Origin: Heterodontus francisci
Lineage: Eukaryota
DNA length: 64,000 nucleotides
NCBI RefSeq assembly: GCF_036365525.1
Contig: NC_090391.1
Span: 34,864,591-34,928,590 of the forward strand
Reading direction: 5' to 3'
Below the pieces are notes generated by a model, which worked only from the letters and a program-made list of their open reading frames with translations, ran no database searches and was not told the origin of the DNA. Shown here one piece after another: positions 5,030 to 61,444 of this stretch. The translations under genes were made by a program, and so were the position numbers. The number at the start of each line of letters is the position of its first letter. Positions within the stretch are counted from its first letter, which is position 1.

Positions 5030-8000
5030 TTTTTTTTATTCATTCATGGGATGTGGGCGTCGCTGGCCAGACCAGCATTTATTGCCCATCCCTAATTGCC
5101 ATTGAGAAGGTGGTGGTGAGCTGTCTTCTTGACCCGCTGCAGTCCATGTGGGGTAGGTATACCCACAGTGCTGTTAGGAAGGGAGTTTCAGGATTTTGAC
5201 CCAGCGGCAGTGAAGGAACTGCGATATAGTTCCAAGTCAGGATGGTGTGTGACTTGGAGGGGAACTTGTATTGCCATGTGTGTGCTGCCCTTGTCCTTCT
5301 AGTTGGTACATGTCGCGGGTTTGGAAGGTGCTGTCGAGGGAGCCTTGGTGCATTGCTGCAGTGCATCTTGTAGATGGTACACACTGCTGCCACTGTGCGT
5401 CGGTGGTGGAGGGATTGAATGTTTGTAGATGAGGTGGCAATCAAGCGGGCTCCTTTGTCCTGGATGGTGTCGAGCTTCATGAGGTTTCTTGGAGCTGCAC
5501 CCACCCAGGCAAGTTGAGAGTATTCCATCACACTCCTGACTTGTGCCTTGTCGATGGTGGACAGGCTATGGGGAGTCAGGAGCTGAGTTACTCTTCTCAG
5601 GATTCCTAGCCTCTGACCTGCTCTTGTAGCCACGCTATTTATATGGCTACTCCAGTTCAGTTTCTGGTCAATGGTCGCCCCTAGGATGTTGATAGTGGAG
5701 GTTTCAGCGATGGTAATGCCGTTGAATGTCAAGGGGAGATGGTTAGATTCTCTCTTGTTGGAGATTGTCATTGCCTGGCACTTGCGTGGCGCGAATGTTA
5801 CTTGCCACTTATCAGCCCAATCTTGGATATTGTCCAGGTCTTGCTGCATTTCTGCACTGACTGCTTCAGTATCTGAAGAGTCACGAATGGTGCTGAACAT
5901 TGTGCAATCATCAGCGAACCTCCCCACTTCTGACCTTATGATTGAAGGAAGGTAATTGATGAAGCATCTGAAGATGGTTGGGGCTTGGACACTACCCTGA
6001 GGAACTCCTGCAATGATGTCCTGGAGCTCAGATGATTGACCTCCAACAACCACAACCATCTTCCTTTGTGCTCGGTATGCCTCCAGCCAGTGGAGGGTTT
6101 TCCCCCTGATTCCCATTGACCTCAGTTTTGCTAGGGCTCCTTGATGCCATACTCGGTCAAATGCTGCCTTGATGTCAAGGGCAGTCACTCTCACCTCACC
6201 TCTTGAGTTCAGCTCTTTTGTCCATGTTTGATTCAAGGCTGTAATGAGGTCAGCAGCTGAGTGGCCCTGCCGGAACCCAAACTGAGCGTCACTGAGCAGG
6301 ATATTGCTTCGAAAGTGCCGCTTGATGGCACTGTTGATGACACCTTCCATCACTTTATTGATGATTGACAGTAGGCTGATGGGGCGGTAGTTGTCCAGGT
6401 TGGACTTGTCCTGCTTTTTGTGTACAGGACATACCTGGGCAATTTTCCACATTGCAGGGTAGATGCCAGTGTTGTAGCTGTACTGGAACAGCTTGGCTAG
6501 GGGCGCAGCAAGTTCTGGAGCACAGGTCTTCAGTACTATTGCCGGAGTATTGTCAGGGCCCATAGCTTTTGTAGTATCCAGTGCCTTTAGTCGTTTCTTG
6601 GTATCACGAGGAGTGAATCGAATTGGCTGAAGTCAGGGATCTATGATGCTGGGGACCTCAGGAGGAGGCCGAGGTGGATCATCAACTCGATACTTCTGGC
6701 TGAAGATTGTTGCAAAGGCTTCAGCCTTATCTTTCGCACTGATGTGCTGGGCTCCCCCATCATTGAGGATGGGGATATTTGTGGAGCAACCTCCTCCAGT
6801 TAGTTGTTTAATTGTCCACCACCATTCACGGCTGGATGTGACAGGACTGCAGGGCTATGGGATCACTTAGCTCTGTCTGTCGCATGCTGCTTACCCAGTT
6901 TGGCATGCAAGTAGTCCTGGTTTGTAGCTTCACCAGGTTGACACCTCATTTTGAAGTATGCCTGGTGCTGCTCCTGGCATGCCCTCCTGCACTCTTCATT
7001 GAACCAGGGTTGCTCTCCTGGCTTGATAGTAATGGTAGAGTGGGGGATATGCCGGGCCATCAGGTTTCTGGTTGTGGTTGAGTACAATTCTGCTGCTGCT
7101 GATGGCCCACAGCGCCTCATGGATGCCAAGTCTTGCATTGCTAGATCTGTTCGAAATCTATCCCATTTAGCACGGTGATAGTACCACACAACACGATGGA
7201 TGGTATCCTCAATATGAAGGCAGGACTTCGTCTCCACAAGGACTGTGCGGTGGTCACTCCTACCAATACTGTCATGGACAGATGCATCTGCGGCAGGCAG
7301 ATTGGTGAGGACGAGGTAAAGTATGTTCCTCCCTCGTGTTGGTTCCCCCACCACCTGCCGCGGACCCTGTCTAGCAGCTATGTCCTTTAGGACTCGACGA
7401 GCTCGGTCAGTAGTGGTGCTACCGAGCCACTCTTGGTGATGGACATTGAAGTCCCCCACCCAGAGTACATTTTGTGCCCTTGCCACCCTCAGTGCTTCTT
7501 CCAAGTGGTGTTCAACATGGAGGAGTACTGAGTCATCAGCTGAGAGAAGGCGGTATGTGGTAATCAGTAGGCGGTTACCTTTTCCATGTTTGACCTGATG
7601 CCATAGGACATCATGAGGTCCGGAGTCAATGTTGAGGACTCCCAGGGCAACTGCCTCCCTACTGCATACGACTGTGCCACCACCTCTGCTGGGTCTGTCC
7701 TCCCGGTGGGACAGGACATACCCGGGGATGTTGATCGCAGTGTCTGGGACATTGTCTGTAAGGTATGATTCTGTGAGCTTGACTATGTCAAGTTGTTGCT
7801 TGAATATCCTGTGGGACAGCTCTCCCAACTTAGGCAGAAGCCCCCAGATGTTAGTAAGGAGGACTTTGTAGGGTCGACAGCGCTGGGTTTGCCGTTGTCG
7901 TTTCCGGTGCCTTGGTCGATGCTGGGTGGTCCGTCCGGTTTCATTCCTTTTTATTGACTTCGTAGCGGTTAATTACTCTTGAGTAGCTTGCGAGGCCATT

Positions 8001-13289: not shown

Positions 13290-15880
13290 CCTTATCTGTC
13301 GCATGCCACTTCTGGTGATTGGCATTATTACATACTTTAAATTCACCAGGTATCTTCTCGTGTGAATTACTACTGCATATTTCACATTTTTCCAGACGAG
13401 GCCTGGTTTGCATTGTTATTGTTTGACATTTACCAGATTTGGTCCAGCGTGCCTTATTATTAAATGTTCCACACTTACCGGATGCTTCCAAGTGTGCATT
13501 ATTATCTAAATGTAATACATTCCAGATGTGAGCTAGTGTGCATTATTATTAAATGTTTCTTAATTACCTGATGTGGTCCAGTGCACATCATTACTAAAAT
13601 CTTCACATTTATCAGCTGCTGCCCAACGCGCTTTATTGCTAAATACATATTTACCAGAGTGGTCAATGTGCATTATTATTAAATGTTTCACATTTATCAG
13701 ATGCAGTGCAATGTGAACTATTACTGAATGCTTCTTTATTTACCAGATGTGATCTAGTGGGCATATTGATTAAATGCTTCACACTTACCAGATGCTGCCC
13801 AGTATGCATTATTACTAAATGCTTCACATTTACCAAATGTGGTCCTATGTGTAGTATCATTAAATGCTTCATATCTTCGAGTTGCAGTCTTGTTTGCATT
13901 AGAATTAAAGGCTTCACGTTTACCAGAGGTGATCAAATGTGCTCTTTTAATAAAGGCATCTTATTGACCAATTATGGTCTCGTGTGCATTATTAATAAAT
14001 GTTTCACATTTACCAGATGTGGTCGAGAGTGAATTATTATTGAACACTTCTTATTTACCGATGTGCTCTTGTGGGCCATATTATTAAAGGCTGCACATTT
14101 ACCAGATGTAGCCCAGCATGCATTATTACTAAGGGATTAACATTTACCAGATGTGGTCTAATGTGCGTTAGCAGTATATTTTTCACATTTTCCAGATGCT
14201 GCCCAGTGAGCCTTATTATTAAATAATTAAATTTATCAGAGATAGTCCAGTGTGTATTACTATTAAAATTTTCACATTTTCCGGATACAGTCTGCTGTAC
14301 ATTGTTATAAATTGTTTCACTTATCCCTGATGTGGTCCAGTTTGCCTTATTATTAAATGTTTCACAATTACCAGATGCTGCCAGGGTGCATTACTAGTAA
14401 CAGTTTCACACATTCCAGTGTGGTCCAGTATGCATGATTATTATTAAATGTTTCAGAAGGTTCAGATACGTCTAGTGTGATTCATTATTAAATACTTCAC
14501 ATTTACCACATTAAATCTGCTATGCATTATTATTAAATGTTTTGCATTTATTTGTTGCTGCCAGTGCGCAGCATTATTAAATACTTCACATTTACCAGAT
14601 GTGGTCAATGTGTGTATTGCTATTAAATATTTTACTTTTGCCAGATGTGATTATGTGTACAATATTATTAAATGTTTCATTTTTACCTGATGTGGTCCCG
14701 TGTGCCCTATTATTAAATGTTTCACATTTATCAGATGCTGCCCAATGTGAAATATTATTACATTATACACATTTACTTGATGTGGCCCATTATTATTACA
14801 TATTTTGTATTTGCCAGAAGCAGTGTAGTATGAATTATTATTGAATGCTTAGGTTTTTTTAGCAGGTGTGATCCAATGGGCCTTATTATTAAATACTTCA
14901 CATTTAACAAACGTGGTTCCCTTCTATTATTATTAAATGCTTCACAGTTTCGAACTGCAGTCTTGTGTGCAGTATTATTCAAAGCTTCAAATTTACCAGA
15001 TGTGGTCAAGTGTGAACTATTATTAAAATCTTCATATTTACCAGATGGGGTCCAGTGTGCGTAAGAAACAAATGTTTCACATTTAGCAGATGCTGCCCAC
15101 TGAGAATTATTATTAAACACTTTACATTTGCCAGGTGCGGTCCAGTATTTATCACTAATACATATTTCACATTTTCTGGATGCGGTCTAGTGTGTATTAT
15201 TATTATTATTATTAATAATGATTTTACACTTTCCAGATGCGGTCTAGTGTGTATTATTATTATTATTATTATTAATAATTGATTCACACTTTCCAGATGC
15301 GGTCTAGTGTGTAGTATTATTATTATTAATAATTGTTTTACACTTTCCAGATGCGGTCTAGTGTGTAGTATTGCTAAATGTTTCATTGTGACCAGATGTG
15401 GCCCAATGCACTTTATTTAGTATTAAATGTTTCAGCTTGACCAATTGTTGCCCAGTGTGTATTATTGTTAAATGTGTCACATTTATCAGATTTGGTGTAC
15501 TGTATATTACTATTATAATTGTCACATTAGCACAATGTGGTCTGGTGTTCATTACATTAAATGCTTTACATTTAACACAATGCAGGGCAGTTTTCGTTAT
15601 TATTATGTTTTCCTGATGTGTCCATGTGCATTATAATTACTAGTCTCACATCTGCCTGATTTGATCAAGACTGCAATGTTATTAAACTCTTCATATTTTA
15701 CAGTTGTGGTCTAGCATGTATTATTATTGAACACTTCACATTTACCAGATTTAATCCAATTCACCTCAGTGTTATTTGTTCCACATTTAACTGATCGTGT
15801 CCAATGTGCATTATTATTGAACATTTCACGTTTGTCAGTTGTGTCCCAATTAGCATTTTATTATTACGTGCTTCACGGTG
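13290..15880. repeat. Degenerate 45-bp tandem array, consensus ~CACATTTACCAGATGTGGTCCAGTGTGCATTATTATTAAATGTTT
   Basis: CATTT(A/T)CCAG recurs at 14096, 14141 and 14186. About 55 units, with (TAT)n expansions inside units at 15195-15330. Confidence 0.92.
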
Positions 15881-16384: not shown

Positions 16385-16561
16385 GAGTAAACCCGAGCCA
16401 CTACACATGTAGTGTCTCCCACCCATCCTCCTCCTGTAACCTAATAATAAGACCCTTTTTACCCTCCTCCTCTAACCAAAAAGGACTGAGCAGGTAAGCT
16501 ATTTACTGTTTTTGTTAATATCTATAGTTGTACTTAACTAAGGGGTAATTGAATAAAAGAA

Positions 16562-17482
16562 ATGGCAGCCAGTGTAGTGTATTGCTCCTCCTGCAGAATG
16601 TTCGAGGTGAGGGAAACCTCCGGTGGCCCTGCCGACTTCACCTGCTGGAAGTGCATCCGTCTCCAGCTCCTATCAGACCGTGTTAGGGAATTGGAGCTGG
16701 AGCTGGATGAACTGAGGATCATTCGGGAAGCTGAGGGGTTGATAGATAGAAGCTACACGGAGGTCGTTACTCCACAAATCAAAGGCAGCTGGGTAACAGT
16801 TAGAGGTGGGAAGAGGTCAGTGCAGGGATCTCCTGTGGTCGTTCCCCTCAACAACAAGTATACAGTTTTAGATACTGTTGGGGGGGACGGCCTATCGGGG
16901 GCAGGCTGCAGTGACCGGGCCTCTGGCACGGGGTCCTGCACTGTGGCTCAGAAGGGAAGGAGGGAGAATGGGAGAGCACTAGTCATCGGGGACTCGATGG
17001 TGAGGAGTACGGACAGGCGGTTCTGTGGGCGCAGGCGAGACGCACGGATGGTTTGTTGCCTCCCTGGTGCCAGGGTCCGTGATGTTTGTGATCGCGTCTT
17101 CAGGATCCTTAAAGGGGAGGGGGAGCAGCCAGAGGTCGTGGTGCACATTGGCACCAACGACGTAGGAAGGAAGGGTGGCACAGATGTTAGAAGTGAGTTT
17201 AGGGAGTTAGGCTGGAAGCTGAAAGCTCGGACGGACAGAGTTGTTATCTCTGGTTTGTTGCCGGCGCCACGTGATAGTGAGGCTAGGAATAGGGAGAGAG
17301 CACAGCTGAACACGTGGCTGCAGGAATGGTGTAGGAGGGAGGGCTTCCAGTTCTTGGATAATTGGACTGCATTCTGGGGAAGATGGGACCTGTTCAAACA
17401 GGACGGGCTGCATCTGAACCAGAGGGGCACCAATATCCTGGGAGGGAGGTTTGCTAGTACTGTTCGGGAGGGTTTAAACTAG
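16562..17482 (+). CDS. CR1 ORF1p: CxxC/CxxC zinc finger, coiled coil and SGNH/GDSL esterase
   Basis: 306 aa; CSSC...CWKC, leucine-zipper-like LELELDEL, GDSMVR, HIGTND, DGLHLN. Confidence 0.93.
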   Translation: MAASVVYCSSCRMFEVRETSGGPADFTCWKCIRLQLLSDRVRELELELDELRIIREAEGLIDRSYTEVVTPQIKGSWVTVRGGKRSVQGSPVVVPLNNKYTVLDTVGGDGLSGAGCSDRASGTGSCTVAQKGRRENGRALVIGDSMVRSTDRRFCGRRRDARMVCCLPGARVRDVCDRVFRILKGEGEQPEVVVHIGTNDVGRKGGTDVRSEFRELGWKLKARTDRVVISGLLPAPRDSEARNRERAQLNTWLQEWCRREGFQFLDNWTAFWGRWDLFKQDGLHLNQRGTNILGGRFASTVREGLN

Positions 17483-17499
17483 TTTGGGAGGGGGATGGG
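17473..17499 (+). promoter_or_regulatory. Candidate -1 programmed ribosomal frameshift signal (U_UUA_AAC plus G-rich downstream element)
   Basis: ORF1 ends GGT TTA AAC TAG. The heptamer is phased X_XXY_YYZ and ORF2 lies in the -1 frame. Confidence 0.65.
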
Positions 17500-20376
17500 A
17501 ACCGGACTTGTAATCCAGGGACCAGTGGGTCCACTCAGAAAGACAAAGAGTGTAGTGAGGTATTGGGGAAGGTAGCACTGTCACAGAGGACAGATGGGCA
17601 CGGAGAAGGGTTAAAGTGCGTATACTTCAACGCAAGAAGCATCAGGAATAAGGTGAGTGAATTGAAGGCGTGGATGGGCACTTGGGACTACGATGTTGTG
17701 GCCATCACTGAAACGTGGATAGGTGAGGGGGAGGAATGGTTTTTGGAGGTACCTGGTTATAGATGTTTTCATAAGATTAGGAATGGTGGTAAAAGAGGTG
17801 GGGGGGGGGTGGCATTGTTAGTTAGAAATAGTGTAACAACTGCTGAAAGAATTTTCGAGGAGGATCTGCCGACTGAGGCACTGTGGGTTGAGGTCAGGAA
17901 CAGGAAAGGAGCAGTCACCTTGATGGGAGTTTTCTATAGGCCCCCCAATAGCAGCAGGGAGGTGGAAGAGCAGATTGGGAAACAGATTTTGGAAAGGAGC
18001 AGAAGTCACAGGGTAGTAATTATGGGGGATTTCAACTTCCCAAATATTGATTGGCAACTCTTTAGATCGAATAGTTTGGATGGGGTAGTGTTTGTGCAGT
18101 ATGTCCAGGAAGCTTTTCTGACTCAGTATGTAGACTGCCCGACCAGAGGGGAGGCAATATTGGATTTGGTACTAGGTAATGAACCAGGGCAAGTGATAGA
18201 GCTGTTGGTGGGCGAGCACTTTGGAGATAGTGATCACAATTCTGTAGCATTCACTGTGGTAATGGAGAGGGATAGGTATGTGCAACAGGGCAAGGTTTAC
18301 AATTGGGGGAAGGGTAGATATGATGCTGTCAGGCAGGAACTGAGGAGCATAAGTTGGGAGCATATGCTGGCAGGGAAGGGCACGGTCGAAATGTGGAACT
18401 TTTTCAAGGAGCAGATAGTAGGGGCCATTGATAAGCATGTCCCTGTCAGACAGGGAAGGGATGGTCATGTGAGGGAACCGTGGTTGACAAGAGAGGTTGA
18501 GAGTCTTGTTAGGAAGAAGAAGGATGCGTATATAAAGTTGAGGAAAAAGGGCACAGGCATAGCTCTGGAGGGATACAAGATGGCCAGGAAGGATCTGAAG
18601 AAAGGGATTAGGAGAGCTAAGAGAGGGCATGAAAAATGCTTGGCGGGTAGGATAAAAGAAAACCCCAAGGCCTTTTACGCGTATGTCAGAAATATGAGGA
18701 TGACTAGGGGGACCATAGGTCCGGTCAAGGACAATAGCGGGAGACTGTGTGTTGAGCCGGAAGAGATAAGTGAGGTTTTGAATGAGTACTTCTCTTCGGT
18801 ATTTACGAATGAGAAGGGGTGTATTACTGAAGAGGACGGTGTGAAACAGACTGGTAAGCTCGAGGAAGTGCTCGTTAGGAGGGAAGATGTGTTGGGGTTT
18901 TTGAATAACTTGAAGATAGACAAGTCTCCCGGGCCTGACGGGGTATATCCAAGGATGTTATGGGAAGCAAGGGATGAAATTGCAGAGCCGCTGGCAATGA
19001 TCTTTTCATCTTCTCTGCTGACGGGGGTGGTACCAGGTGATTGGAGGGTGGCAAATGTTGTGCCCCTGTTCAAGAAAGGGAATAGGAACAACCCTGGGAA
19101 TTACAGGCCAGTTAGTCTTACTTCGGTGGTAGGCAAGTTGATGGAAAAGGTGCTGAGGGATAGGATTTCTGAGCATCTGGAAAGACACTGCTTGATTCGG
19201 GACAGTCAGCACGGTTTTGTGAGGGGTAGGTCTTGCCTCACAAGCCTGATTGAATTCTTTGAGCAGGTGACCAAGCAAGTGGATGAGGGTAAACCAGTGG
19301 ATGTGGTGTACATGGATTTTAGTAAGGCATTTGATAAGGTCCCCCATGGTAGACTTATGGAGAAAGTCAGGAGGCATGGGATAGTGGGGAATGTGGCCAG
19401 TTGGATTAAGAATTGGCTAACTGATAGAAGGCAGAGAGTGGTCTTAGATGGTAAATACTCAGCCTGGAGCCCAGTTACCAGTGGCGTGCCGCAGGGATCA
19501 GTTCTGGGTCCTCTCCTGTTTGTGATTTTTATTAACGACTTGGATGAGGAAGTCGAAGGGTGGGTCAGTAAATTTGCAGATGATACAAAGGTTGGTGGAG
19601 TTGTGGATACCGAGGAGGGCTATTGTCGTCTGCAAAGGGACTTGGATAGGTTGCAGTGCTGGGCTGAAAAGTGGCAGATGGAGTTTAACCCTGAAAAGTG
19701 TGAGGTCGTCCATTTTGGAAGGACAAACACGAATGCAAAATACTGGGTTAACGGTAGGGTTCTTGGGCATGTGGAGGAGCAGAGAGACCTTGGGGTCTAT
19801 GTGCAGAGATCGTTGAAAGTTGCAACTCAAGTGGATAGGGCTGTGAAGAAGGCATATGGGGTGTTAGCGTTCATTAGCAGAGGGATTGAATTTAAGAGCC
19901 GTGAGGTGATGATGCAGCTGTACAGGACCTTGGTAAGGCCTCATTTGGAGTACTGTGTGCAGTTCTGGTCGCCTCATTTTAGGAAGGATGTGGAAGCCTT
20001 GGAGAGGGTGCAGAGGAGATTTACCAGGGTGTTGCCTGGAATGGAGAATAAGTCTTACGAGGAAAGGCTGAACATTCTAGGCCTCTTCTCATTAGAACGG
20101 AGAAGGATGAGGGGTGACATGATAGAGGTTTATAAGATGATCAGGGGAATAGATAGGGTAGACAGTCAGAAACTTTTTCCCCGGGTGGAGCAAAGCGTTA
20201 CAAGGGGTCATAAATTTAAGGTGAAGGGTGGGAGATATAAGGGGGATGTCAGGGGAAGGTTCTTTACCCAGAGAGTGGTCGGGGCATGGAATGCCTTGCC
20301 TGGGGAAGTTGTTGAGTCAGAAACTTTAGGGACTTTCAAACGGCTTTTAGATAGGTATATGGATAAAGGAGAATGA
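17479..20376 (+). CDS. CR1 ORF2p: APE endonuclease plus reverse transcriptase (no AUG before the APE; start inferred from a -1 frameshift)
   Basis: Frame is open from 17458 to TGA 20374-20376; motifs YFNARS, ITETW, GDFN, SDH, YRPVSL, DFSKAFD, GVPQGS, FADD. Confidence 0.93.
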   Translation, partial: LVWEGDGNRTCNPGTSGSTQKDKECSEVLGKVALSQRTDGHGEGLKCVYFNARSIRNKVSELKAWMGTWDYDVVAITETWIGEGEEWFLEVPGYRCFHKIRNGGKRGGGGVALLVRNSVTTAERIFEEDLPTEALWVEVRNRKGAVTLMGVFYRPPNSSREVEEQIGKQILERSRSHRVVIMGDFNFPNIDWQLFRSNSLDGVVFVQYVQEAFLTQYVDCPTRGEAILDLVLGNEPGQVIELLVGEHFGDSDHNSVAFTVVMERDRYVQQGKVYNWGKGRYDAVRQELRSISWEHMLAGKGTVEMWNFFKEQIVGAIDKHVPVRQGRDGHVREPWLTREVESLVRKKKDAYIKLRKKGTGIALEGYKMARKDLKKGIRRAKRGHEKCLAGRIKENPKAFYAYVRNMRMTRGTIGPVKDNSGRLCVEPEEISEVLNEYFSSVFTNEKGCITEEDGVKQTGKLEEVLVRREDVLGFLNNLKIDKSPGPDGVYPRMLWEARDEIAEPLAMIFSSSLLTGVVPGDWRVANVVPLFKKGNRNNPGNYRPVSLTSVVGKLMEKVLRDRISEHLERHCLIRDSQHGFVRGRSCLTSLIEFFEQVTKQVDEGKPVDVVYMDFSKAFDKVPHGRLMEKVRRHGIVGNVASWIKNWLTDRRQRVVLDGKYSAWSPVTSGVPQGSVLGPLLFVIFINDLDEEVEGWVSKFADDTKVGGVVDTEEGYCRLQRDLDRLQCWAEKWQMEFNPEKCEVVHFGRTNTNAKYWVNGRVLGHVEEQRDLGVYVQRSLKVATQVDRAVKKAYGVLAFISRGIEFKSREVMMQLYRTLVRPHLEYCVQFWSPHFRKDVEALERVQRRFTRVLPGMENKSYEERLNILGLFSLERRRMRGDMIEVYKMIRGIDRVDSQKLFPRVEQSVTRGHKFKVKGGRYKGDVRGRFFTQRVVGAWNALPGEVVESETLGTFKRLLDRYMDKGE

Positions 20377-32422: not shown

Positions 32423-34619
32423 ATGGAAACAGTTATCTACCGATTACATTTGTTGCTTCACTTTGTTTGCTTTCCAACCCCTTCTGGACCTGCCTCTCCT
32501 CCAGTTTCCAAATGTCCTTTTACGTGTCTCCCTTCAATCGACTCGCTTGCTCAGCCTCCATCTGCCTATTTCTCATGATCTGAAGTCACAAACTCACCGC
32601 AGGGGTTCTCGACCTTTTCACGTTTTGAGACAGCCCCTGTTGACTCTCTTAACCATTGAAATAAAAAGAAGTTCCCCTTTCCCCTCACTTTCTCATCCAT
32701 TGCTCTGGGTGCAAAACTGGAGTTAAACCATTGGATTACTTGTTTGAAACCCCCTTCTCCATTCCACACTGGCAGGGCGTCCTCACTCAGCCACTGTATC
32801 CAGTGATCATTATATTTCATCTCTATTTCAGATCAACTTCCCAATCAATCTTTGTTAACTGTGTTTAAAACCATTCTCTGCTGGATGCTGCAACAAAGCT
32901 GCAAATTTCACACCAGATCCTGTCAAACTGCTACTTGAGTTTGAGGTCTGATCAGTAATTTCTCTGCGTCCCTTTCTATCTATTTCAGTTAACCTGGTGG
33001 CGATTCTGACCCTATCCCGAGGAAAGTGTGGTCTCTCCAAATGTGTCACTGTCTAAGTTGTGGGAATGGCAGTGGCTGATCTCCTGGTCGTTATCACAGG
33101 TCCCATATTGAGGCGGATTTCTTGGATTTATTTCCCAGATTCATTCCTGTCCATTACTCCCATCTGCAGTTCAATTAATGTCCTGGTGTTTGCAACCGCA
33201 ATGGTTTCTGTCTGGCTGACAGTCGTTTTCACCTTTGATCGATTTGTAATCATTTGCTGTGAGAAGCTGAAGGAAAAATATTGCACTGAGAGAACAGCGG
33301 CTCTGGTTATCGGAACAGTGAGTCTGCTGTGCTCTTTGGAATGTGTTCCCTGGTACTTTATATGTGAACCGAAATATATAATTGATATTGTTCCCTGGTG
33401 CTGTATCGTGAAACAGAGCTACTATAGTTCCCCCTCATGGACCGCGTTTGAGTTGTTCCACCGCATTTTAACTGCTTGCGTACCATTCTTTCTGATTTTG
33501 CTGTTAAATGTACTGACGGTCAGACGAATTATAGCGGCCAATAGAGTCGGCAGTGGACTCCGGTGCCTCAGCAATGGAGAGAATCACAATGACCCAGAGA
33601 TGGAGAATCGAAGGAAATCAATCATTTTACTGTTTAGATTATCTGGCAGTTTTATACTGTTATGGGTGATGCAGATTGTATTTTACATCTATCAGCGAAT
33701 TACAAAACAATATGCTTCCTCGACCAATGACCCTCTTTATATCACAGAATACACAGCAGCAATGCTGCAGCTTCTCAGTTCCTGCACCAACACGTGTATT
33801 TATGCTGTGACCCAGACGAAATTCAGAGAGGAGCTAAAGAGGGTCGTGAAATACCCTCTCAATCTAATTGTTAGATTAGTTAAGTCATAAGAAAAGTGAA
33901 GTTTTCCATGTTCTCGAACTAAAGTCCATTCGACTCCACAGCCTATATTTACGATATGGTGTTAAATATTCTGTTCACAGCACCGAACCTTGAGATAATT
34001 GTAAACTTGATTTTGTAATATATTAAACATCTGACCTAATGAGGCTGGTTATTTTTGCAGAAGACACAGGAATTGTTTGTCAAAAATGACGGTGCTAAAG
34101 AGCACAGCTGGACATCAACTGAAGCAGCTCTCAATCAAAGGAGCTCCTGTTGCCTTGATGACAGAACGATAGGGTAGGTACTGGTAATGTCACTGAGTTA
34201 ATAATCCAGCAGCCTATTGTAATGCCTTGGGAACAGGGGTTCAGATCCCCTTCTAGCTGCTGGTAGAATTCAACTTCAATTAATCAGTTAAAAATCTGGA
34301 ATTGAAAACTTGTCTCAGTCATAGTGCCATGAAATAAAGAGTTAGATGATCGAGCAACTTCCTTATGGAAAAGGCCTGGCATACATTTGACTCTCATCAC
34401 ACACATTTAGAGAAAAGTACAATAAATATGGAGAAATAAGGTTCGACAGCACGAAGAAGAGAGAAGCAGAGAGGCCGGTGGAGAAGAACAGGTATGGCAG
34501 AGGGCGGATGTGACAAGTTGTAACAATCCCCAGTCCTGTTGTGGCGTATTGTGGCATGTTTAGTGTGATGGTTTTAGGGGCTAATGCCTTTCGAAAACTA
34601 CAATTTTTTTCTGCCACTC

Positions 34620-36735: not shown

Positions 36736-39700
36736 GTGCAATTCATCACAGAACAGGACCTGCGTACTGCCTTCCAGGCTGCTGCACGCAGCTTTCTGGT
36801 AACAGTGACCAACACCCTTAATCCCAATCTCTTCCGCTTTCTCTCTGGTACTCTCTCCCCACTGTTATCCTTTCCTCTCCCTGTTATTCTCCCTCCATAT
36901 CTATCCCTGTCTTTCTCACTTTTACTCTCTCCATCTGGATGGAGGAGGAGAAAGAGCTGCAAATGTAGAGGCGGATTTACTCTGTATCTAAACCCACACT
37001 GTACCTGCCCTGGGAACTATTGTTAGAACAGAGAAGACAAAAATGTACTCTGTAGTTAATTCCTTTCCTAAACCTCGCGGTCTCACTACCTCTATTTCCT
37101 CTTTGAAGATGCTCCCTAAAATCAACTTCTTTGACCAAGTTTTTGTTCACCTAGCCTAATACTTCCGTAAGTGGCTCTGTGCCAAGCTTTTATTTAGTTG
37201 TTTTATTCATTGGTGGGATGCGCATGTCGCTGGCAAGACCAACATTTATTGCCCATCCCTAATTGTCCTTTGAGAGGGTGGTGGTGAGTTTCTTGAACCA
37301 CTACAATCCATATGTGGTAGGTAAACCCACTGTGTTGTTAGAAAGAGTTCCAGGGTTTTGACTCAGTGATAGCGAAGGAACGGTGATCTCGTTCCATTTA
37401 GGATGATGTGTGACTTTAGTTGTTGTGCGCGACCAGGATTTTCAGTGAGTAGTCTCCTTAAATGTTTACTTAATATTTTTTAACGTTGTTAGATGTAAAC
37501 TTTCTCCAACAATCTGCCTACCTCTCCCCATCTCACCCTCCATATTTCCTCCCGTCTCTCCCTCCTTCTCTCTCCTTGTCCCTCTTATGTAGTCCAAGAT
37601 CCCATATGTTTCGCTAATTACTCTCTCGATAAGTCATGCCGACTTCAAAGATCACAGGTCGTGAACCTTCAGGTCGCTCTGTCCCTGTTCCTGCACACTC
37701 TTTACAAATGTGTCACAGTGCAGTACTGTCTCTCTCTCCTATCTCAGAACTTCAAACAAAGTCAACATGGTTTCACGGAATGGAAATCGTGTTTTTTGAG
37801 GGTGTATCTAGTCACTAAATAAAGCGGATTCAGAAGATGTGTTATACTTGGATTTAGAAAAAGCTTCACACAAAAGGTTAAAATGAAAAAAAAATAAGGG
37901 TTCATGGAGTTGGGGTAACATGTTAGTGTGGATGGAGAATAGGTTAATGGACAGGAATCAAACAGTAGGGACAAACAGGGCATTTTCAAGTTGGCGGACT
38001 GTGACTAGTGTAGTGATGCAAGGTTCTCTTGCTGAGCATCAGCTATTTTTACTGAAAATATTTGTTCCGAAACCTCCCTAACTCTCACTGCCTCTCTCGA
38101 TCCCCCGGAAACTCTTTGTAACTCTCTCTGTCCACTTCTCTCTCTAAATGTCTGTCTAGATCTTGACTCAGGAGCTCCTGAACAAAACAGAATCACAACA
38201 TTAGCCATTCATTTATTAACATCAGTTTAAAAACATCACACAGCCATTTTAAGTTTGTTCTCAGTGACCATTTTATATCACCACAGCAGTGGGCCATTTA
38301 TTTGAGAGAATGGCTCCTCACTATTGTAACGTTAGAGCTTTAGACGTGACAGGGACACAGACATGGAGAAACTGAGACACACAGTACTGGACAGGAGTGA
38401 AACATTCATTAATACTAATTGTGTGCTGTACATATACAGGAGCTGACACTGTATTAAATGCATTTAAGGGATCTGGGCATCACTGACAAAGAGAGCATTT
38501 ATTGTCTAATTTCCTTTAGAAGGTGGGAATCAGCTGCTACCGTCCAGGAGTAAGTGAGCAAACAACAGTCTCCTTCCAGCAGCACATCGCTTTGGACCCT
38601 GAGTTCAGCGATCGTCATTGACACCGGGGCCTGTTCAGGGCGGGTCGTGGGCTGTTTGTAAGTGGAAGACTGTAGCAGGAACTGGTCCTGGAACATGGTG
38701 TGAGTGGCAGAAGGGAAAGGCCTTTCTTGGGGTGTATGTCGACTGGGTGAAGGAGTCAGAATGTGAAGAAGCCGCGATTGAAAATCATTGCTGCTTCCTC
38801 TCCTCAAACATGTAATGCATGTTCCTGTTTCACGCTATTTGCTGTACTTGGACAGTGAATTGTGAAAACAAAGCTGGACAGTAAGGATGGGAGCAGTTCT
38901 GCAAATGACACCTTTTGCAGGCACCAGATGAGAATATCAAGGAAATATTTTAAACAGCGGCTGTTGGTTTCCGTTGAACAATTAGTTCAATGGCAGCTGG
39001 AAATAGAATATTGACCTGCGCAAATATCCCTGCTCCATCAGGTCTTCCCATTCTGAGAACAGTGCAGATATCGGGTTGGTTCTGAACCGTACTAAATTGT
39101 AAGAAAAGCGCAAAAAATTCACCTGGCTGACTGAAGCTGAGTGCTGCAATGGAGTCAGACACTGACACAATTTGTATTGCTGGTTATTATTTGCATTTGT
39201 TCGGAATCCTTATCAATTGAAAAATCACATTAATCTATTTTCAATCTTCCATTTCACCGGATCTTGGATGACAAGTGATGATTTACTTCTTTCTTGTGGA
39301 GAAATACATGAAGGAACCAGAATAAATATGGTAACTCCTCAGCACAAGGAGCAGTGCTGTAAGTTCCTTCCAATACACAGTAGGTACGTTATTACTACCA
39401 CAGTTCAGCGACACAGACAGGCCATGCTTTCCGCAGTCACAGAGAACAGAACCAGTCAAACTCCCACTAATACCAACGTCCACCAAATTCTCAAACCAAC
39501 AGTCAATGAAAGCAGGAGGAACAGATGATATTTCCAATTCAACCCAACTCAGAACTGCTGAAAGATAGGTGCATCAATTTTAGTTCAAAATTGCAACCAC
39601 TATCAGATTGAAAGGCACTGTATCAATCTCACAAGAGTGCAGCTTTAGCTATAAATTAATTAACAGACGAACAGCTAATTGAAAGGTACAGAACAAACCA

Positions 39701-50624: not shown

Positions 50625-51865
50625 TAGAGATAGGGGATGGAGGAGGTTACAGAAAAAGGGAGGTTTGTAGAGAATGGAGGAGGTTACAGTGATAGGGAGG
50701 GTTGTTGGACTGGAGGTGGTGACAGAAAAAGGGAGGGTTGTAGGGGCTGGAAGAGGTGTCAGAGATAGGGAGAGTTGGACGGGCAGGAGGAGGTTACAGA
50801 GATAGGGTGTGTTGTGGGCACTTGGGATGTTTACAGAGACAGGGAGCTTGGAGTGGCTGCAGGATGTTAGAGAGATCGGGAGGGTTGCATGTGCTGGAGG
50901 GGAATACAGTGATAGGGAGAGCAGTAAGCACTGGAGGCGGTGACAGATCTAGGGAAGCTTCTAGGGGATGGAGGACGTTATAGAGATAGGGGCGCTGGTT
51001 GGGGTGGAGGAGGTTACAGAGATAGGGATGGCTTTAGAGGTTGGAGGAGGTTGCATTTATAGGGCGGATTGTAGGGGCTGGAGGAGTTGGCAGAGTTAGG
51101 GAGAGTTGCAGCTCTGGAGGAGGTTTCAGCGATAGGGAGCGTTGTTGGGCCTTGACTAGGTGCCAGAGATAGGGAGGGTTGGAGGGGCTGGAGGAGGTTA
51201 CAGAGATAGGGGGGATTGTCGGAGGCTGCACAGTTCGGGAGTGCTGTAGGGGCGAGAGGAGATTACAGAGCTAGGGAGGGTTGTAAGGGCTTGAGGAAAT
51301 TACAGAGATAGGGATTCTTCTAGGGGCTGGAAGACGTAACAGAGTTAGGTAGGGTTCTAGGGGCTGAGTAGGTTACAGAGATAAGCAGGTTTATCAGGTT
51401 TGCAGTAGGTGATAGAGATCGGGAGAGTTGTAGGGGCTGAACGATGTGACAAGATAGGGATAGTTGTGGAGTCAGGAGGATATGACAGAGATCGGGAGGT
51501 TTAACGGCTGGAGGAGGTAACAGATTTAGGGAGGGTTGTAGGGGCTGGAGGAGGTTAAAGAGATGGGGAGAATTGAGGTGCTGAGGAGGTAACGGAGCTG
51601 GGAGGGTTTTAGGGGCTGGAGGATGTTACATAAATAGGGAGCATTGTAGGGGTGGAGGAGACCACAGTGAAAGGGAGTGTTGTGCGGCTGAGGAGTTAAC
51701 AGAGATTGGGAGGGCTGTCGAGGATGGAGGCGGTTACAGAAATGGGGAGGGGTTTTAGGGACTGGAGGAAGTTACCAGGGAAGGGAGGATTGTTTGGGCT
51801 GGAGCAGGTGACAGAGATAGTAAGGGTTGTAGGGGCTGGCGGAGGTGACCGAGACAGGGAGTTTG
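50625..51865. repeat. G-rich 37-bp minisatellite (~GGGAGGGTTGTAGGGGCTGGAGGAGGTTACAGAGATA)
   Basis: AGGAGGTTAC at 50641 and 50678; ~33 diverged units. Confidence 0.9.
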
Positions 51866-52883: not shown

Positions 52884-54742
52884 TTAGAATTAGAATGTTA
52901 CAGCGCATTACAGGCCCTTCGGCCCTCGATGTTCCGCCGACCTGTGAAACCATCTGACCTACACTATTCCATTTTCATCCCTATGTCTATCCAATGACCA
53001 CCTAAATGCTCTTAAAGTTGGCGAGTCTACTACTGCTGCAGGCAGGGCGTTCCACGCCCCTACTACTCTCTGAGTAAAGAAAATACCTCTAACATCTGTC
53101 CTATATCTATCACCCCTCAACTTAAAGCTATGTCCCCTCGTGTTTGCCATCACCATCTGAGGAAAAAGACTCTCACTATCCACCCTATCTAACCCTCTGA
53201 TTATCTTATATGTATCTATTAAGTCACCTCTCCTCCTCCTTCTCTCCAACGAAAACAACCTCAAATCCCTCAGCCTTTCCTCGTAAGACCTTCCCTCCAT
53301 ACCAAGCAACACCCGAGTAAATCTCCTCTGCACCCTTTCCAAAGCTTCCACATCCTTCCTATAATGCGGTGACCAGAACTGCACGCAATACCCAAGGTGC
53401 GGCCTCACCAGAGTTTTGTACAGCTGTATCATGACCTCGTGGCTCCGAAACTCGACCCCCCTACTAATAAAAGCTAACACACCATATGCCTTCTTAAAAG
53501 CCCTATTAACCTGGGTAGCAACCTTCACGAATTTATGTACCTGGACACCAAGATCTCTCTGTTCATCTGCACTACCAAGAATCTTCCCATTAGCCCAGTA
53601 CTCTGCATTCCTGTTACTATTTCCAAAGTGAATCACCACATACTTTTCCGCATTAAACTCCATTTGTCATCTCTCAGCCCAGCTCTGCTGCCTATCTATG
53701 TCCCTCTGTACCCTACAACATCCTTCGGCACTATCCACAACTCCACCGACCTTCGTGTCATCCGCAAATTTACTAACCCACCCTTCTACACCCTCTTCCA
53801 GGTCATTTATAAAAATGACAAACAGCAGTGGCCCCAAAGCAGATCCTTGCGGTACACCACTAGTAACTAAACTCCAGGATGAACATTTGCCATCAATCAC
53901 CACCCTCTGTCTTCTTTCAGCTAGCCAATTTCTGATCCAAAGCTCTAAATCACCTTCAACCCCATACTTCCGTATTTTCTGCAATAGCCTACCGTGGGGA
54001 ACATTATCAAACACCTTACTGAAATCCATATACACCACATCCACTGCTTTACCCTCATCCACCTGTTTGGTCACCTTCTCGAAAAACTCAATAAGGTTTG
54101 TGAGGCACGACCTACCCTTCACAAAACCGTGCTGACTGTCGCTAATGAACTTATTCTTTTCTAGATGATTATAAATCCTGTCTCTTATAACCTTTTCCAA
54201 CATTTTACCCACAACCGAAGTAAGGCTCACAGGTCTATAATTACCAGGGCTGTCTCTACTCCCCTTCTTGAACAAGGGGACAACACTTGCTATCCTCCAG
54301 TCTTCCGGCACTATTCCTGTCGACAATGACGACATAAGGATCATGGACAAAGGCTCTGCAATCTCCTCCCTGGCTTCCCAGATAATTCTAGGATAAATCC
54401 CATCTGGCCCAGGGGTCATATCTATTTTCACACTTTCCAAAATTGAGAACACCTCCTCCTTGTGAACCTCAATCCCATCTAGCCTAGTAGCCTGAATCTC
54501 GGTATTCTCCTCGACAACATTTTCTTTCTCTACTGTAAATACTGACGAAAAATATTCATTTAACGCTTCCCCTATCTCCTCTGATTCCACACACAACTTA
54601 CCACTACTATCCTTGATTGGCCCTAATCCAACTCGAGTCATTCTTTTATTCCTGATATACCTATAGAAAGCCTTAGGGTTTTCCCTGATCCAATCCGCCA
54701 ATGACTTCTCGTGTCCTCTCCTTGCTCTTCTTAGCTCTCCCT
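52884..54742 (-). mobile_element. 5'-truncated young CR1 LINE
   Basis: RT ORFs 53667-54833 and 52959-53663 are separated by one stop; tail TTAGAATTAGAA. Confidence 0.93.
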
Positions 54743-55019
54743 TTACTGAGAGCTTGTCAGTACAACTGAGAGAAAACAGTTTTGGGATCTTGCAACACCT
54801 ATTCCTGAGAATCTTTTGCTTTGATTTATCCAATTTAATTTATTTTACTGCTCTGCTCCTGGGGGCATTTGTTTTACTTTGAAAACTATAATGACAATAT
54901 GTGGAGAGAGTGAGAGAGTTTTGTGATGAGGAATATGATTGGACAGGCTGTCCATCCGCCCTGGAAGGATAGGTGAAGGGGAAGGGGAAAAGGAGGTGCG
55001 ATCGTGCTGTTAATGCAGG

Positions 55020-57755: not shown

Positions 57756-58189
57756 AAACTGTCGTCATAGTATTCAGCTGAAAAATAATCAGTTACATTA
57801 TTATTTCTGTCCATCTTTACAGCACACACGGTACCTTACTGTTGTAATAAAGTCATATAGTATCATTTCATCCCACTGGGGCAAAATTTCACTGCCTCGA
57901 CAATCTCACCAAATACTAAAACATTCCACAGTGCAAGACTGTCAAATTCAACATAAGTTTACTTTTCTGAGTCTTGCTGGTCTGTTCTAATTCTGTGAGG
58001 GATTACTGATGCTTATCCTCCACATGAGCAGTCGTCCTAATCCTGTGTGCCTGTTCTGCTCCCAAACCCGGCATCCGCCTATATTAAGGCAAGTGATACA
58101 GGAGCGTCTCTGTGACTGAGGCAGGTGAGTCTTGAGCCTGAGCCAGGCACAGTGAGTGACCCGGGTTAATCCGACACTCCAGGGAATGT

Positions 58190-58751
58190 TTAAACGGAGC
58201 TGTACTCTGTATCTAACAAGCGCTGTACCTTCTCTGAGTGTATTCGATGGGACAGGGTAGATGTGCAAGAGGTTATCCCTTCATTTGATCTCTGAGAAAT
58301 TGGATAAGCCAAGGTTTTTATCTGTGTCTCTCTCTGTCCTCCTCTCTGTATCTCTCCCACCTGCTATCTCTGACACGAGGAGAGAGACAGAGGGAGAGAG
58401 GGTTAGATTTGCAGAGAGAGGGCTGGAGAGAGGGATAAGGTTGTAGAGATTGAGTTTGATGGGATGGTTTGAAAGGGAAAATGTAAGATATATTCATTTG
58501 ATGAAAAGACAGTGCAGAGAGAGCTTTCCTCTCTATCTAACACCGTTTTTTCTTAGTATCGAGGGAGCTTTACTCTGTATCTAATCCCCGTTTTTTTTTC
58601 CTTTTTTTTTGTAGAGGGAGCTTTACTCTGTATCTAACCCCGTGTTGTACCTGCCTGGGTGTGTTTGATGGGACAATGTTGGGGGAACTTTACTCTGTAT
58701 CTGAGCCCCGTTTTTTTTTGTAGACAGAGCTTTGCTCTGCATCTAAACCAG
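58190..58751 (+). repeat. Copies of a ~65-bp repeat unit (GTAGAGGGAGCTTTACTCTGTATCTAACCCCGTG.TGTACCTGCC.TGGG.GTGTTTGATGGGACA), several interrupted by poly-T
   Basis: Units at 58190-58262 and 58512-58751; also 36965-37060. Confidence 0.8.
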
Positions 58752-61441
58752 TTTTTTTTTAAGGTGGCCCTTATACGCTGGGCCCCTTTTACATATTTTA
58801 TGTCGAGGGGGCCTTTATTCCTCAGGGCCCCTTAATATACATAATTATATTTTAAAAATAACTTTATTAAAAACAGAAATAAACAAAAACTCAAATTAAA
58901 ATGCCATTATCGGCGTCGACATTGCACGCCAGTCGATGTGGTGCCCACCGGTTGCGGAAGGCCTCAAGCGTACCAGCGGACACCGCATGCTCCGTCTCCA
59001 GGGACACCCGGGCGCGAACGGAACCGAGGAAGAGGGGCAGGCAACGTGAGCAGAGCCTCCGATACTTCGGCGCCCTCCGGGCTGACTTGCAGCAGGTCCT
59101 CCCACAAAACTCTGCGTGCATACTCCTTGGACGGATCCGGAGTGAACAAGGCACTGTCAGTACCGACCAGGAGGCCCATTCCCTCCGGAGCTGCTTACGG
59201 ACCCCCCGCCATTTTTCCAGCGAGTAGAAGGGTGATGCGCGGTTCACATCTTCCAGGTTCTGGATCCGCGACCTGACGTACGCGCCTCGAGACCCTATGA
59301 GCTGCAGATCCCTCAGCGCACCCTTCATCTCTTTGTACGCCTGCCACAGGGCCGGGTCCGCGACGGCATGACCGAGGCGGGACTTCAAGTCGAGCACCTC
59401 CCTCTGTAGGCATCCAATCTCAGCTTCCTGCCTCTTGGTCAACACCTTCGCATACTCCTGACAGAAGACGCGGATGTGAGTCTTGCCAACATCCCACCAT
59501 AGCCTCAAGGAGGGGAAGCCCCCATGCTTCCTTCTCCAGTCGGCGCAGAATTGACAGAACAAGTCCCTGAATCGCTCGTCCTCCAGCAGCCGGTTGTTAA
59601 AGTGCCAGTACGCGGACCCCGCCCGCGTGCGGAGCGGAATGAATTCCACACACAACAGGCGGTGGTCCGAGCACGGCACCAGCCGCATGGAGGTCGCCGA
59701 GACACGGGAGACGTATGCCTGGGAAATGTAAAGGCTGTCGATTCGGGACCCTGCTCCTCCAGTCCTCCACGTGAAGGCGCTGGAGTCGGGATGGAGATTA
59801 CGCCAGACGTCCACCAAGTTGCGGGAGCTGATCAGTTCCCTCAACTTCTCCACCAACGCTTAGCAGCACTGGGGACCGGAGCAATCCCCCACCTCGAGGG
59901 TGCAGTTAAAATCCCTCCCGAGGATGATGCACTCGCCACTATCGATGGAGCTCAAGAGAGCGGTCACTTCTTCAAAGAAGCGCGCTTGCAATGCGCCGGG
60001 CCCGGGCGCGTATACGTTCACAAAGTGGAGCGGCACGCTACCCAGGCGTACAGAAACGTGGAGCAAGTGGCCCGGCACGAGCTCCATGCCCCGCAAGATC
60101 TCCGGCTGAAAGGTCGGGGCCAACAAGATAGCCATTCCACTAGAAATAGTTTAGTTTAGTTTAGTGCTGCAGCACTGAAACCGGCCCTTCAGCCCACCGA
60201 GTCTGAGCCGACCATCAACGACCCATTTATACTAATCCTGCACTAATTCCATATTCCTACCACATCCCCACCTCTCCCTATATTTCCCTACCACCTACCT
60301 ATACCAGTGACAATTTATAATGGTCAATTTACCTATCAACCTGCAAGTCTTTTGGCATGTGGGAGGAAACCGGAGCACCCGGAGGAAACCCACGCAGCCA
60401 CAGGGAGAACTTGCAAACTCCACACAGGCAGTACCCAGAATTGAACCCGGGTCGCTGGAGTTGTGAGGCTGTGGTGCTAACCACTGTGCCGTCCTGGGGT
60501 GAGGTGACTTATGTAGACCCCGCCTTGCCACTCCTGGAGCCAGGTGGCTTCGTCTCCTGGAACGGTGTGGGTTTCTTGCAGAAAGCTCACCGCGTATCTC
60601 CTTTCCCTCAGGACTGAGAGATTGTGAAATCTGCGGTGAGACCCCCTGCTGCCGTTGATGTTGAGGCTGGCTATGGTTCTCTTCATGTCAAAGGTACTTA
60701 AATACGTCATTAACACCTCCATGTGAGGAGGGCGTGGGAGTGAACCGGGCCTTCCACTCCCGCAGCAACCCATTGAGGAGCACATTAAAACGACATCTCT
60801 CAACCAGTTTCACGCCAGCGCGCTTGCCCGCTTTCTTCAGGGCGGCACAGACGGACTGTATGATCAGCGCCAGATTCAACCAACGGCCGAGGGCCAGCTG
60901 ACCTTTATTGCAGCAACCCCTGCAAGCCGCGAGGAAATCCCGGAGATCCGCCGTGGGGATGAGAGGAGGTTTGTTGGGAAACACGACGTACTCCAACACC
61001 TCACTGGTGATGGAATCAAGGTCATCCGCCGTGCCCCACACCGAAACCCCATCCTCCTCCGGGTCATCACTGCCAGTGGCCGACACATCCACCACACACT
61101 GTGGGGCGGACGTCCCGGCCTTGGCAGCTGGTCCCGCCTCCGTCTCAATCCCACCCCCAGCATTGATGGTGGAGGAGTCCTCTCTGGGTTCTAAGATGGA
61201 AGTGGAGCCTGTGGGCGCCAGCGGTTGAGGAACCAGCCCCCACCCCCCACATCCGACCCCAGGCCAATCAGCGGTCCAGGGGAGATGGGAGTTCCCGACT
61301 GCGGAAATCCAGCTGAGACCGGAGGCGGAGAGAGGAGGCCATCTCCCGCTCCACCAGCACCCACAGTCCCAGCAGATGGGGCAGTATTCTCGGTTATAAC
61401 CGGGTCGGGTGTCTCCTGTTTGGTAGTGGACTCCGGCTGGG
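58752..61441 (-). mobile_element. Tx1-like (L1-group) LINE copy B: 5'-truncated ORF1, APE, RT deleted, intact 3' end with poly(A)
   Basis: ORF2 ATG at 60686 (MKRTIASLNING), FLQETH, CSDH, WHFNNRLL, WWDVGK, then a jump to the C-terminal RVSLETEH...FRNRWAP. T9 tail at 58752-58760. Confidence 0.88.
60148..60495 (-). mobile_element. HE1-like V-SINE inserted in Tx1 copy B
   Basis: Interrupts CTAGAAATAG/GG.TGAGGTGAC, which is contiguous in copy A (62752-62775). Confidence 0.9.
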
Positions 61442-61444
61442 AAT

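Follow-up and report, generated by a model that had tools for sequence, protein, structure and literature searches.

Target-specific LINEs are usually viewed as restricted by a fixed supply of targets in the host. Target preference, tandem stacking and the trans-mobilisation of other RNAs to the preferred target have been described for families of the Tx1 clade, and satellites are among the target classes in the legend of Fig. 3 of the same source (PMC4494074, available portion). For L1, serial and orphan 3' transductions that leave two homopolymer stretches are described in the accessible part of PMC4859970, and 3' transduction by the site-specific R1-clade elements R7Ag and R1Bm appears in the accessible part of PMC7265360, in the context of retrotransposition assays. 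Target preference and 3' transduction are each known, but the literature searched contained no case of the two coupled, in which a LINE disperses the very sequence it targets. Nor was a match found there for the pairing of a shark Tx1 element with a satellite or for the unit motifs; Repbase and most subscription papers were beyond reach, and the family may be catalogued in them.

The window (the whole stretch of DNA that was analysed, 64,000 nucleotides) contains a stack of motif copies and T-runs next to the 3' end of a LINE. Such stacks are probably the result of serial 3' transduction of the target by a recently active LINE of the Tx1 clade. Like Keno, Kibi, Koshi and Tx1-Mar, as these are presented in the portion of PMC4494074 available, the element prefers one site in a multicopy sequence and stacks in tandem around the TSD. 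Like Tx1-Mar, which brings SINEU-3 to its target (PMC4494074, same portion), it is associated with apparently trans-mobilised RNAs at its own target. The 68-bp minisatellite target, the frequent serial transduction of that target and the dispersal of whole arrays set it apart from the Tx1 families described in that portion. At least two homopolymer stretches and source flank within the new TSD are features in common with L1 as described in the accessible part of PMC4859970, where TSDs of 4–20 bp are given, similar to the 4–15 bp seen here; read-through past a weak poly(A) signal would be another. In that account L1 has little site specificity and the flank it carries is unique DNA, whereas the flank carried here is the element's own target. 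The product therefore looks like a long TSD and supplies fresh targets. R7Ag and R1Bm are likewise target-specific APE-type LINEs that copy downstream read-through sequence; they belong to another clade, and the accessible part of PMC7265360 describes no genome-wide dispersal of their target.

Membership of the Tx1 clade, proposed in a sequence-only reading of the window, is borne out by protein comparison. There are six intact copies among the 40 loci fetched, with an ORF1 of 671–693 aa and an ORF2 of 1252 aa from stop to stop. ORF2 has an N-terminal APE endonuclease domain (PF03372) and an RT domain (PF00078). Tx1L of Xenopus laevis has the same two ORFs, with APE and RT in ORF2, and its ORF2 (YTX2_XENLA) is the best of 53 matches, at 50% identity across 99% of the length. 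Among named protein fragments, the closest come from a stingray and a horn shark (in the latter 93% across 28% of ORF2), which suggests a cartilaginous fish as the host. Poly(A) tails, 5' truncations and short TSDs, which are hallmarks of Tx1 elements, were all found. Pairwise identity is 99.0–99.5% among five of the six intact copies, which indicates that the family is young. Judged by its sequence, the element is a young Tx1-clade LINE. Its 3' end differs between copies (reference positions 1, 34, 85, 96 and 107). Loci L062, L064, L074, L077, L082 and L084 represent subfamilies with differing 5' UTRs, and in part differing ORF1 ends, that retain a similar terminal motif mimicking the left half of the target.

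The copy in the window is dead, its RT having been deleted (Table 1). The body is interrupted at 60150–60495 by a dispersed SINE-like repeat, and the overlapping segment referred to as copy A extends 1,701 bp beyond the window to its 5' end. Four units of motif and T-run are present where the sequence-only reading placed them (T-runs at 58546–58551, 58591–58610, 58711–58719 and 58752–58760), each T-run being preceded by a motif copy that ends in CCCCG or a variant of it. As that reading also stated, the 3' end of the LINE follows the fourth T-run and the unit continues without interruption; the continuation can be traced from 58643 (TGTTGTACC) to 58710. The restart of the same motif after the first three T-runs stands as regards position, with restarts of about 35–36, 32 and 32 nt, but the motif copies are degenerate. 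The 31-mer quoted in that reading occurs twice in the window with up to 3 mismatches (exactly at 58611 and with 3 mismatches at 58558), where shuffles (n=100) lead to an expectation of 0; the remaining motif copies were recovered by blastn. Exact matches in the genome number 1,337 for the motif plus T8, 158 for T7 plus a GTAGAG restart, 3,836 for empty sites and 1,401 for element 3' ends, and the reversed-pattern controls all gave 0. The pattern is not due to chance.

Table 1. Positions of the features in the window, and repeat pieces enclosed by short TSDs at other loci
Feature	Location	Strand	Remarks
Multi-copy flank (segmental repeat), outside the LINE	57760..58502	.	40/40 scored matches at 90–100%
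Degenerate empty target unit	58190..58255	+	blastn; paralogous flanks compared
Outermost partial unit, ends at the cut bond	58508..58545	+	
T-run 1 (poly(A) of minus-strand RNA) and unit fragment of ~35–36 nt	58546..58590	-	
T-run 2 and 32-nt restart	58591..58642	-	Missing from C45 paralog L158
AGTAAA on the element's sense strand	58622..58627	-	Sequence; restart histogram
Intact minisatellite unit of 68 bp (right half of the target and next left half)	58643..58710	+	
T-run 3 and 32-nt unit fragment	58711..58751	-	
Tx1 LINE poly(A) tail and 3' end	58752..59044	-	92% to intact copy L065
AATAAA hexamers in Tx1 3' end	58814–58819 and 58863–58868	-	
Tx1 body with internal deletion	59042..61442	-	Reference 283–2522 lost, RT domain included
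Copy A, second overlapping Tx1 segment	61529..64000	-	APE endonuclease and ORF1; without RT and without its own 3' end
Two serial pieces, 43 and 47 nt	L090+		12-bp TSD
35-nt piece	L090-		11-bp TSD
Enclosed unit fragment	L139		12-bp TSD
Stack of ~550 bp with three T-runs and intact units	L140		8-bp TSD; build like that in the window
About 11 units	L182		11-bp TSD with one mismatch; flank itself simple repeat, so a weaker case

In the 6.0-Gb genome, the locus of the window is present as six near-identical segmental copies (L001–L006) and an older paralog on C45 (L158). Four T-runs are found in the window and three in the C45 paralog. The piece associated with T-run 1 is present in both and would be a transduced piece. 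T-run 2 is the leading candidate here for a body-less insertion that came later, and on its own it may fit such an event and the sequence-only reading's model equally well. The motifs on either side of T-run 3 have many differences; two of these are also in the C45 paralog, so that the motifs already differed before that duplication. The outermost partial unit is likely to be the true insertion site of the stack, and past 58502 five of the six distant paralogs that were read go on without any unit. The left-flank paralogs were considered as simple empty sites and rejected; the stack starts at a TTTGATG microhomology with the flank. The scars of the window, which has no identifiable outer TSD closing them, are assigned by analogy with other loci and not one by one. 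The stack would be one old, since-rearranged product of serial transduction that was later multiplied by segmental duplication. A lone degenerate copy of an empty target unit is also present in the window at 36964–37014 (plus strand).

The commonest natural unit of the minisatellite is 68–69 bp, and the preferred bond within it is CCCCG^TGCTG. Among the outermost flanks of 33 independent insertions, classified by eye in a sample biased to copies resembling that of the window, 20 are the unit at this one bond, 10 are off-target, 2 are the 5' end of an element already in place and 1 is ambiguous. This sample consists of the 40 best 3'-end matches minus the six segmental window copies and one duplicate (L086), with the C45 paralog kept as the stand-in for the window; target occupancy is based on it and on the exact-match counts. 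One type of flank thus exceeds the 20% by which Kojima recognises target preference (PMC4494074, available portion). The target-specific family of the sequence-only reading is retained as one with a strong preference for a single bond that is used repeatedly (20/33), but this preference is not absolute (10/33 off-target). TGCTG is present at 53 of 55 full-length 5' junctions versus 137 of 219 in arrays. A transcript start inside the unit was considered for this excess and set aside; read by eye, truncated copies and retrocopies lean the same way, and the excess is better read as target preference.

Sequence runs from four other organisms cover both element and unit, with depth over the unit exceeding that over the element by a factor of about 15 to several hundred, and X9 and X11 have one contig apiece that spans tail and unit. 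This hints that the pairing of element and unit is common to other organisms. On contigs C1–C6, target sites from the first 100 listed, whether filled or empty, are concentrated no more than about 20 Mb from the contig ends. A search of L098:600–1200 for the unit as a structural RNA found no Rfam match at E≤1.

The insertion site, the orientation and the size of the TSD are evident from the junctions. A TSD of ~32 bp had been proposed, and this size was not encountered: classed by eye, none of 29 foreign-body 5' junctions has a duplication of 16–50 bp, 25 have a TSD of 4–15 bp and the other 4 are small deletions or a microhomology join. Of the 25, 12 belong to on-target copies that are truncated, 7 to off-target insertions and 6 to inserts other than Tx1; the set omits the unclear junction of L177 and copies whose 5' side had been disrupted by later events or lay out of range. 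At the 5' end of copy A, where GTAGAG...CCCCG was to be looked for, the element joins TGCTGTACC directly. The same direct join is present in all 30 loci retrieved by their 5' end, many of which are segmental duplicates, and it recurs without a long duplication in 35 long loci, at 42 junction contexts of full-length copies, with the qualification that zero and one whole added unit look alike in tandem arrays. In paralogous flanks of the single empty unit at 58190–58255 (L071 and L086), a full-length Tx1 sits at the target bond, and the empty and filled pair shows that no unit was added by the insertion. Full-length 5' ends abut the right half of the target without a TSD. The 5' end of the element (...CAGCCAATCCCAG) resembles the left half of the target and has in turn received insertions in L066, L076, L077, L082, L087, L097 and L174, resulting in head-to-tail arrays.

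The lengths of 70 T-run restarts fall mostly between 16 and 50 nt (53), with 11 at 7–15 nt and 6 above 50 nt; the most used is 32, in 8 of the 70. Fourteen restarts of at least 18 nt, read by eye, have no unit on their left and are therefore not duplications of the insertion site. Unit fragments and whole arrays are carried inside short TSDs at unrelated sites: five stacks of motif and T-run, of up to ~11 units, lie within TSDs of 8–12 bp (Table 1). Long restarts that have no motif on the left and are enclosed by short TSDs have thus travelled with the RNA. The L140 stack reads, in order, T-run, 50 nt, T-run, 32-nt GTAGAG restart, intact units, T-run, 23 nt, units, T-run and element. In L076, a rare variant within the 13-bp TSD agrees with the outer motif, not with the motif beside the element. 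The mark of 3' transduction, downstream source sequence with a poly(A) tract on either side and enclosed by the new TSD, is present in L090+, L090-, L139, L140, L182 and L076. Pieces of the 5' UTR of the next element follow T-runs in L074, L077, L100 and L148, as is predicted by read-through in a tandem array.

It is improbable that the long restarts represent insertions of poly(A) only in which the second-strand nick lies ~32 bp off and the motif is duplicated as a TSD. This would agree with the 17 rows in which body-less scars are followed by an intact unit, with the one scar that the window has more than the C45 paralog, and with the short restarts, which lie within the measured range of TSDs. 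It does not agree with the lack of any 16–50-bp duplication at the foreign-body junctions, nor with the 14 restarts that lack a motif on the left, five of which are enclosed by a different, short TSD. A motif duplicated as a TSD would also carry its sequence variants across the T-run, and here sharing is at the level of shuffled pairs: 34 motif pairs across a T-run have 1 shared variant (28 on the left, 31 on the right; shuffled mean 0.59), whereas 160 pairs of adjacent intact units, an imperfect positive control since arrays are homogenised, have 21 (87 and 82; shuffled 2.7), a difference with Fisher p=0.01. Segmental duplicates and the amplified run of L103 were left out of this comparison. 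The contrast in C-run length is weak (12/34 versus 85/160, Fisher p=0.09), and L072 and L101 each share a variant across a T-run, which favours the long TSD and counts against transduction. As a general cause, a long TSD is largely refuted. The poly(A)-only scars of the sequence-only reading survive in part: body-less scars exist, and the short ones (7–15 nt, 11/70) fit an ordinary TSD and are probably poly(A)-only insertions, but the long restarts do not support that origin.

Duplication of the motif and T-run unit at the DNA level, through slippage or unequal crossover, is a real secondary process. It is seen in L103 (C1:9.68 Mb), a secondary array of ~46-bp units of motif and T-run in an alternating two-unit pattern, and identical scars are found three times in L065 (18 nt) and twice in L172 (34 nt). 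That it is the main source of the stacks is very unlikely, given that successive units, in the window as at most loci, vary in the length of the restart and in the variants they carry, and that tandem duplication cannot put the motif at a unique site within a TSD. There is next to no likelihood that the units are a constant component of the 3' UTR in a family without target preference. Transduced units do accompany the element, and 10 of the 33 insertions lie off-target, which speaks for it; of these 10, however, 6 have a plain poly(A) end that lacks the motif, and the 5' junctions run into the right half of the unit. The latter cannot be ascribed throughout to 5' transduction of the right-half flanks, which is excluded by the truncated copies. 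The empty and filled pair formed by 58190–58255 and L071 also stands against a fixed 3' UTR, as does the presence of unrelated RNAs (RPS20, a SINE-like repeat) with TSDs at the target bond.

Serial 3' transduction would proceed as follows. The LINE would nick the T-run strand of the ~68-bp minisatellite at ...TCTAACCCCG^TGCTGTACC and insert by target-primed reverse transcription, leaving TSDs of 4–15 bp. Through a leaky 3' end, its RNA may often extend beyond the A-tract in the genome, enter the repeat that lies downstream and gain a second poly(A) 16–66 nt, or sometimes several units, further on. Insertion of this read-through RNA, usually at another unit, would give the order motif, T-run, motif, T-run, element, mimicking a long TSD, and repeated rounds would build the stacks. 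Internal priming on A-rich stretches of the read-through RNA would be expected to give the same product as such a second poly(A). Should reverse transcription halt in the carried piece of repeat, pairing between the cDNA and the target could produce a body-less scar. Both AGTAAA and TATAAA are weak variants of the poly(A) signal. TATAAA is the hexamer nearest the tail of the family, and AGTAAA is on the sense strand of the unit, 11 nt ahead of the commonest restart point. Restarts 10–30 nt past AGTAAA number 31 of 70 versus about 23 if they were uniform, a modest enrichment that lends weak support to AGTAAA as a candidate weak poly(A) signal. As intact ORF2 copies that are 99% alike exist, both the endonuclease and the read-through model are open to test.

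Host RNA has also been retrocopied into the target bond. An RPS20 processed pseudogene in L077 (7616–8126 in T-run orientation; C40) is located at the exact bond with a 15-bp TSD, and this copy was presumably made by ORF2 of the Tx1 LINE. Five other polyadenylated inserts that are not Tx1, a SINE-like repeat and four inserts of ~170–380 bp, are at the target bond in L137, L143 and L147. Processed pseudogenes are in this way funnelled into one repeat. Within the 12-bp TSD of L139, a tRNA sequence (L139:1915–2009; Rfam RF00005, 38 bits; 95 nt) is joined to a truncated Tx1 5' end. This fusion is a template-switch chimera, and from its length of 95 nt the tRNA is probably an intron-containing one.

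The young family has demonstrably created intact new targets at unrelated sites (L140 and L182). To a site-specific element this offers an escape from saturation, and to satellites a retrotransposon route of dispersal. It is conceivable, though doubtful, that LINE and minisatellite form a self-seeding loop, in which the repeat is targeted, serves as the element's read-through terminator, has intact units seeded off-target and receives later insertions there, and that this loop accounts for much of the spread of the repeat; many arrays have no poly(A) boundary, which counts against so large a share. If the loop were real, a sizeable part of the dispersal of the repeat across several related genomes would be due to its own parasite, retrocopies of host mRNAs would also land in seeded units, and the target mimicry of the 5' end would be selected, keeping occupied sites usable. 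For annotation, 3' transductions can be expected to resemble long TSDs wherever the flank is the target.

The window contains several further features. A near-intact LINE with a GDSL-esterase ORF1 and an ORF2 with APE and RT lies at 16553–20376 (plus strand), and we take it to be CR1/L2-like. Other fragments of LINEs, with an RT or an APE domain, are present at 5079–7972 and 52959–54839, both on the minus strand. Degenerate tandem arrays of 45 bp and 37 bp occupy 13420–15372 and 50631–51861, respectively. A 277-aa open frame at 33057–33890 (plus strand) matches 7tm_1, the rhodopsin-family GPCRs, and a receptor gene cluster may account for the segmental duplications.
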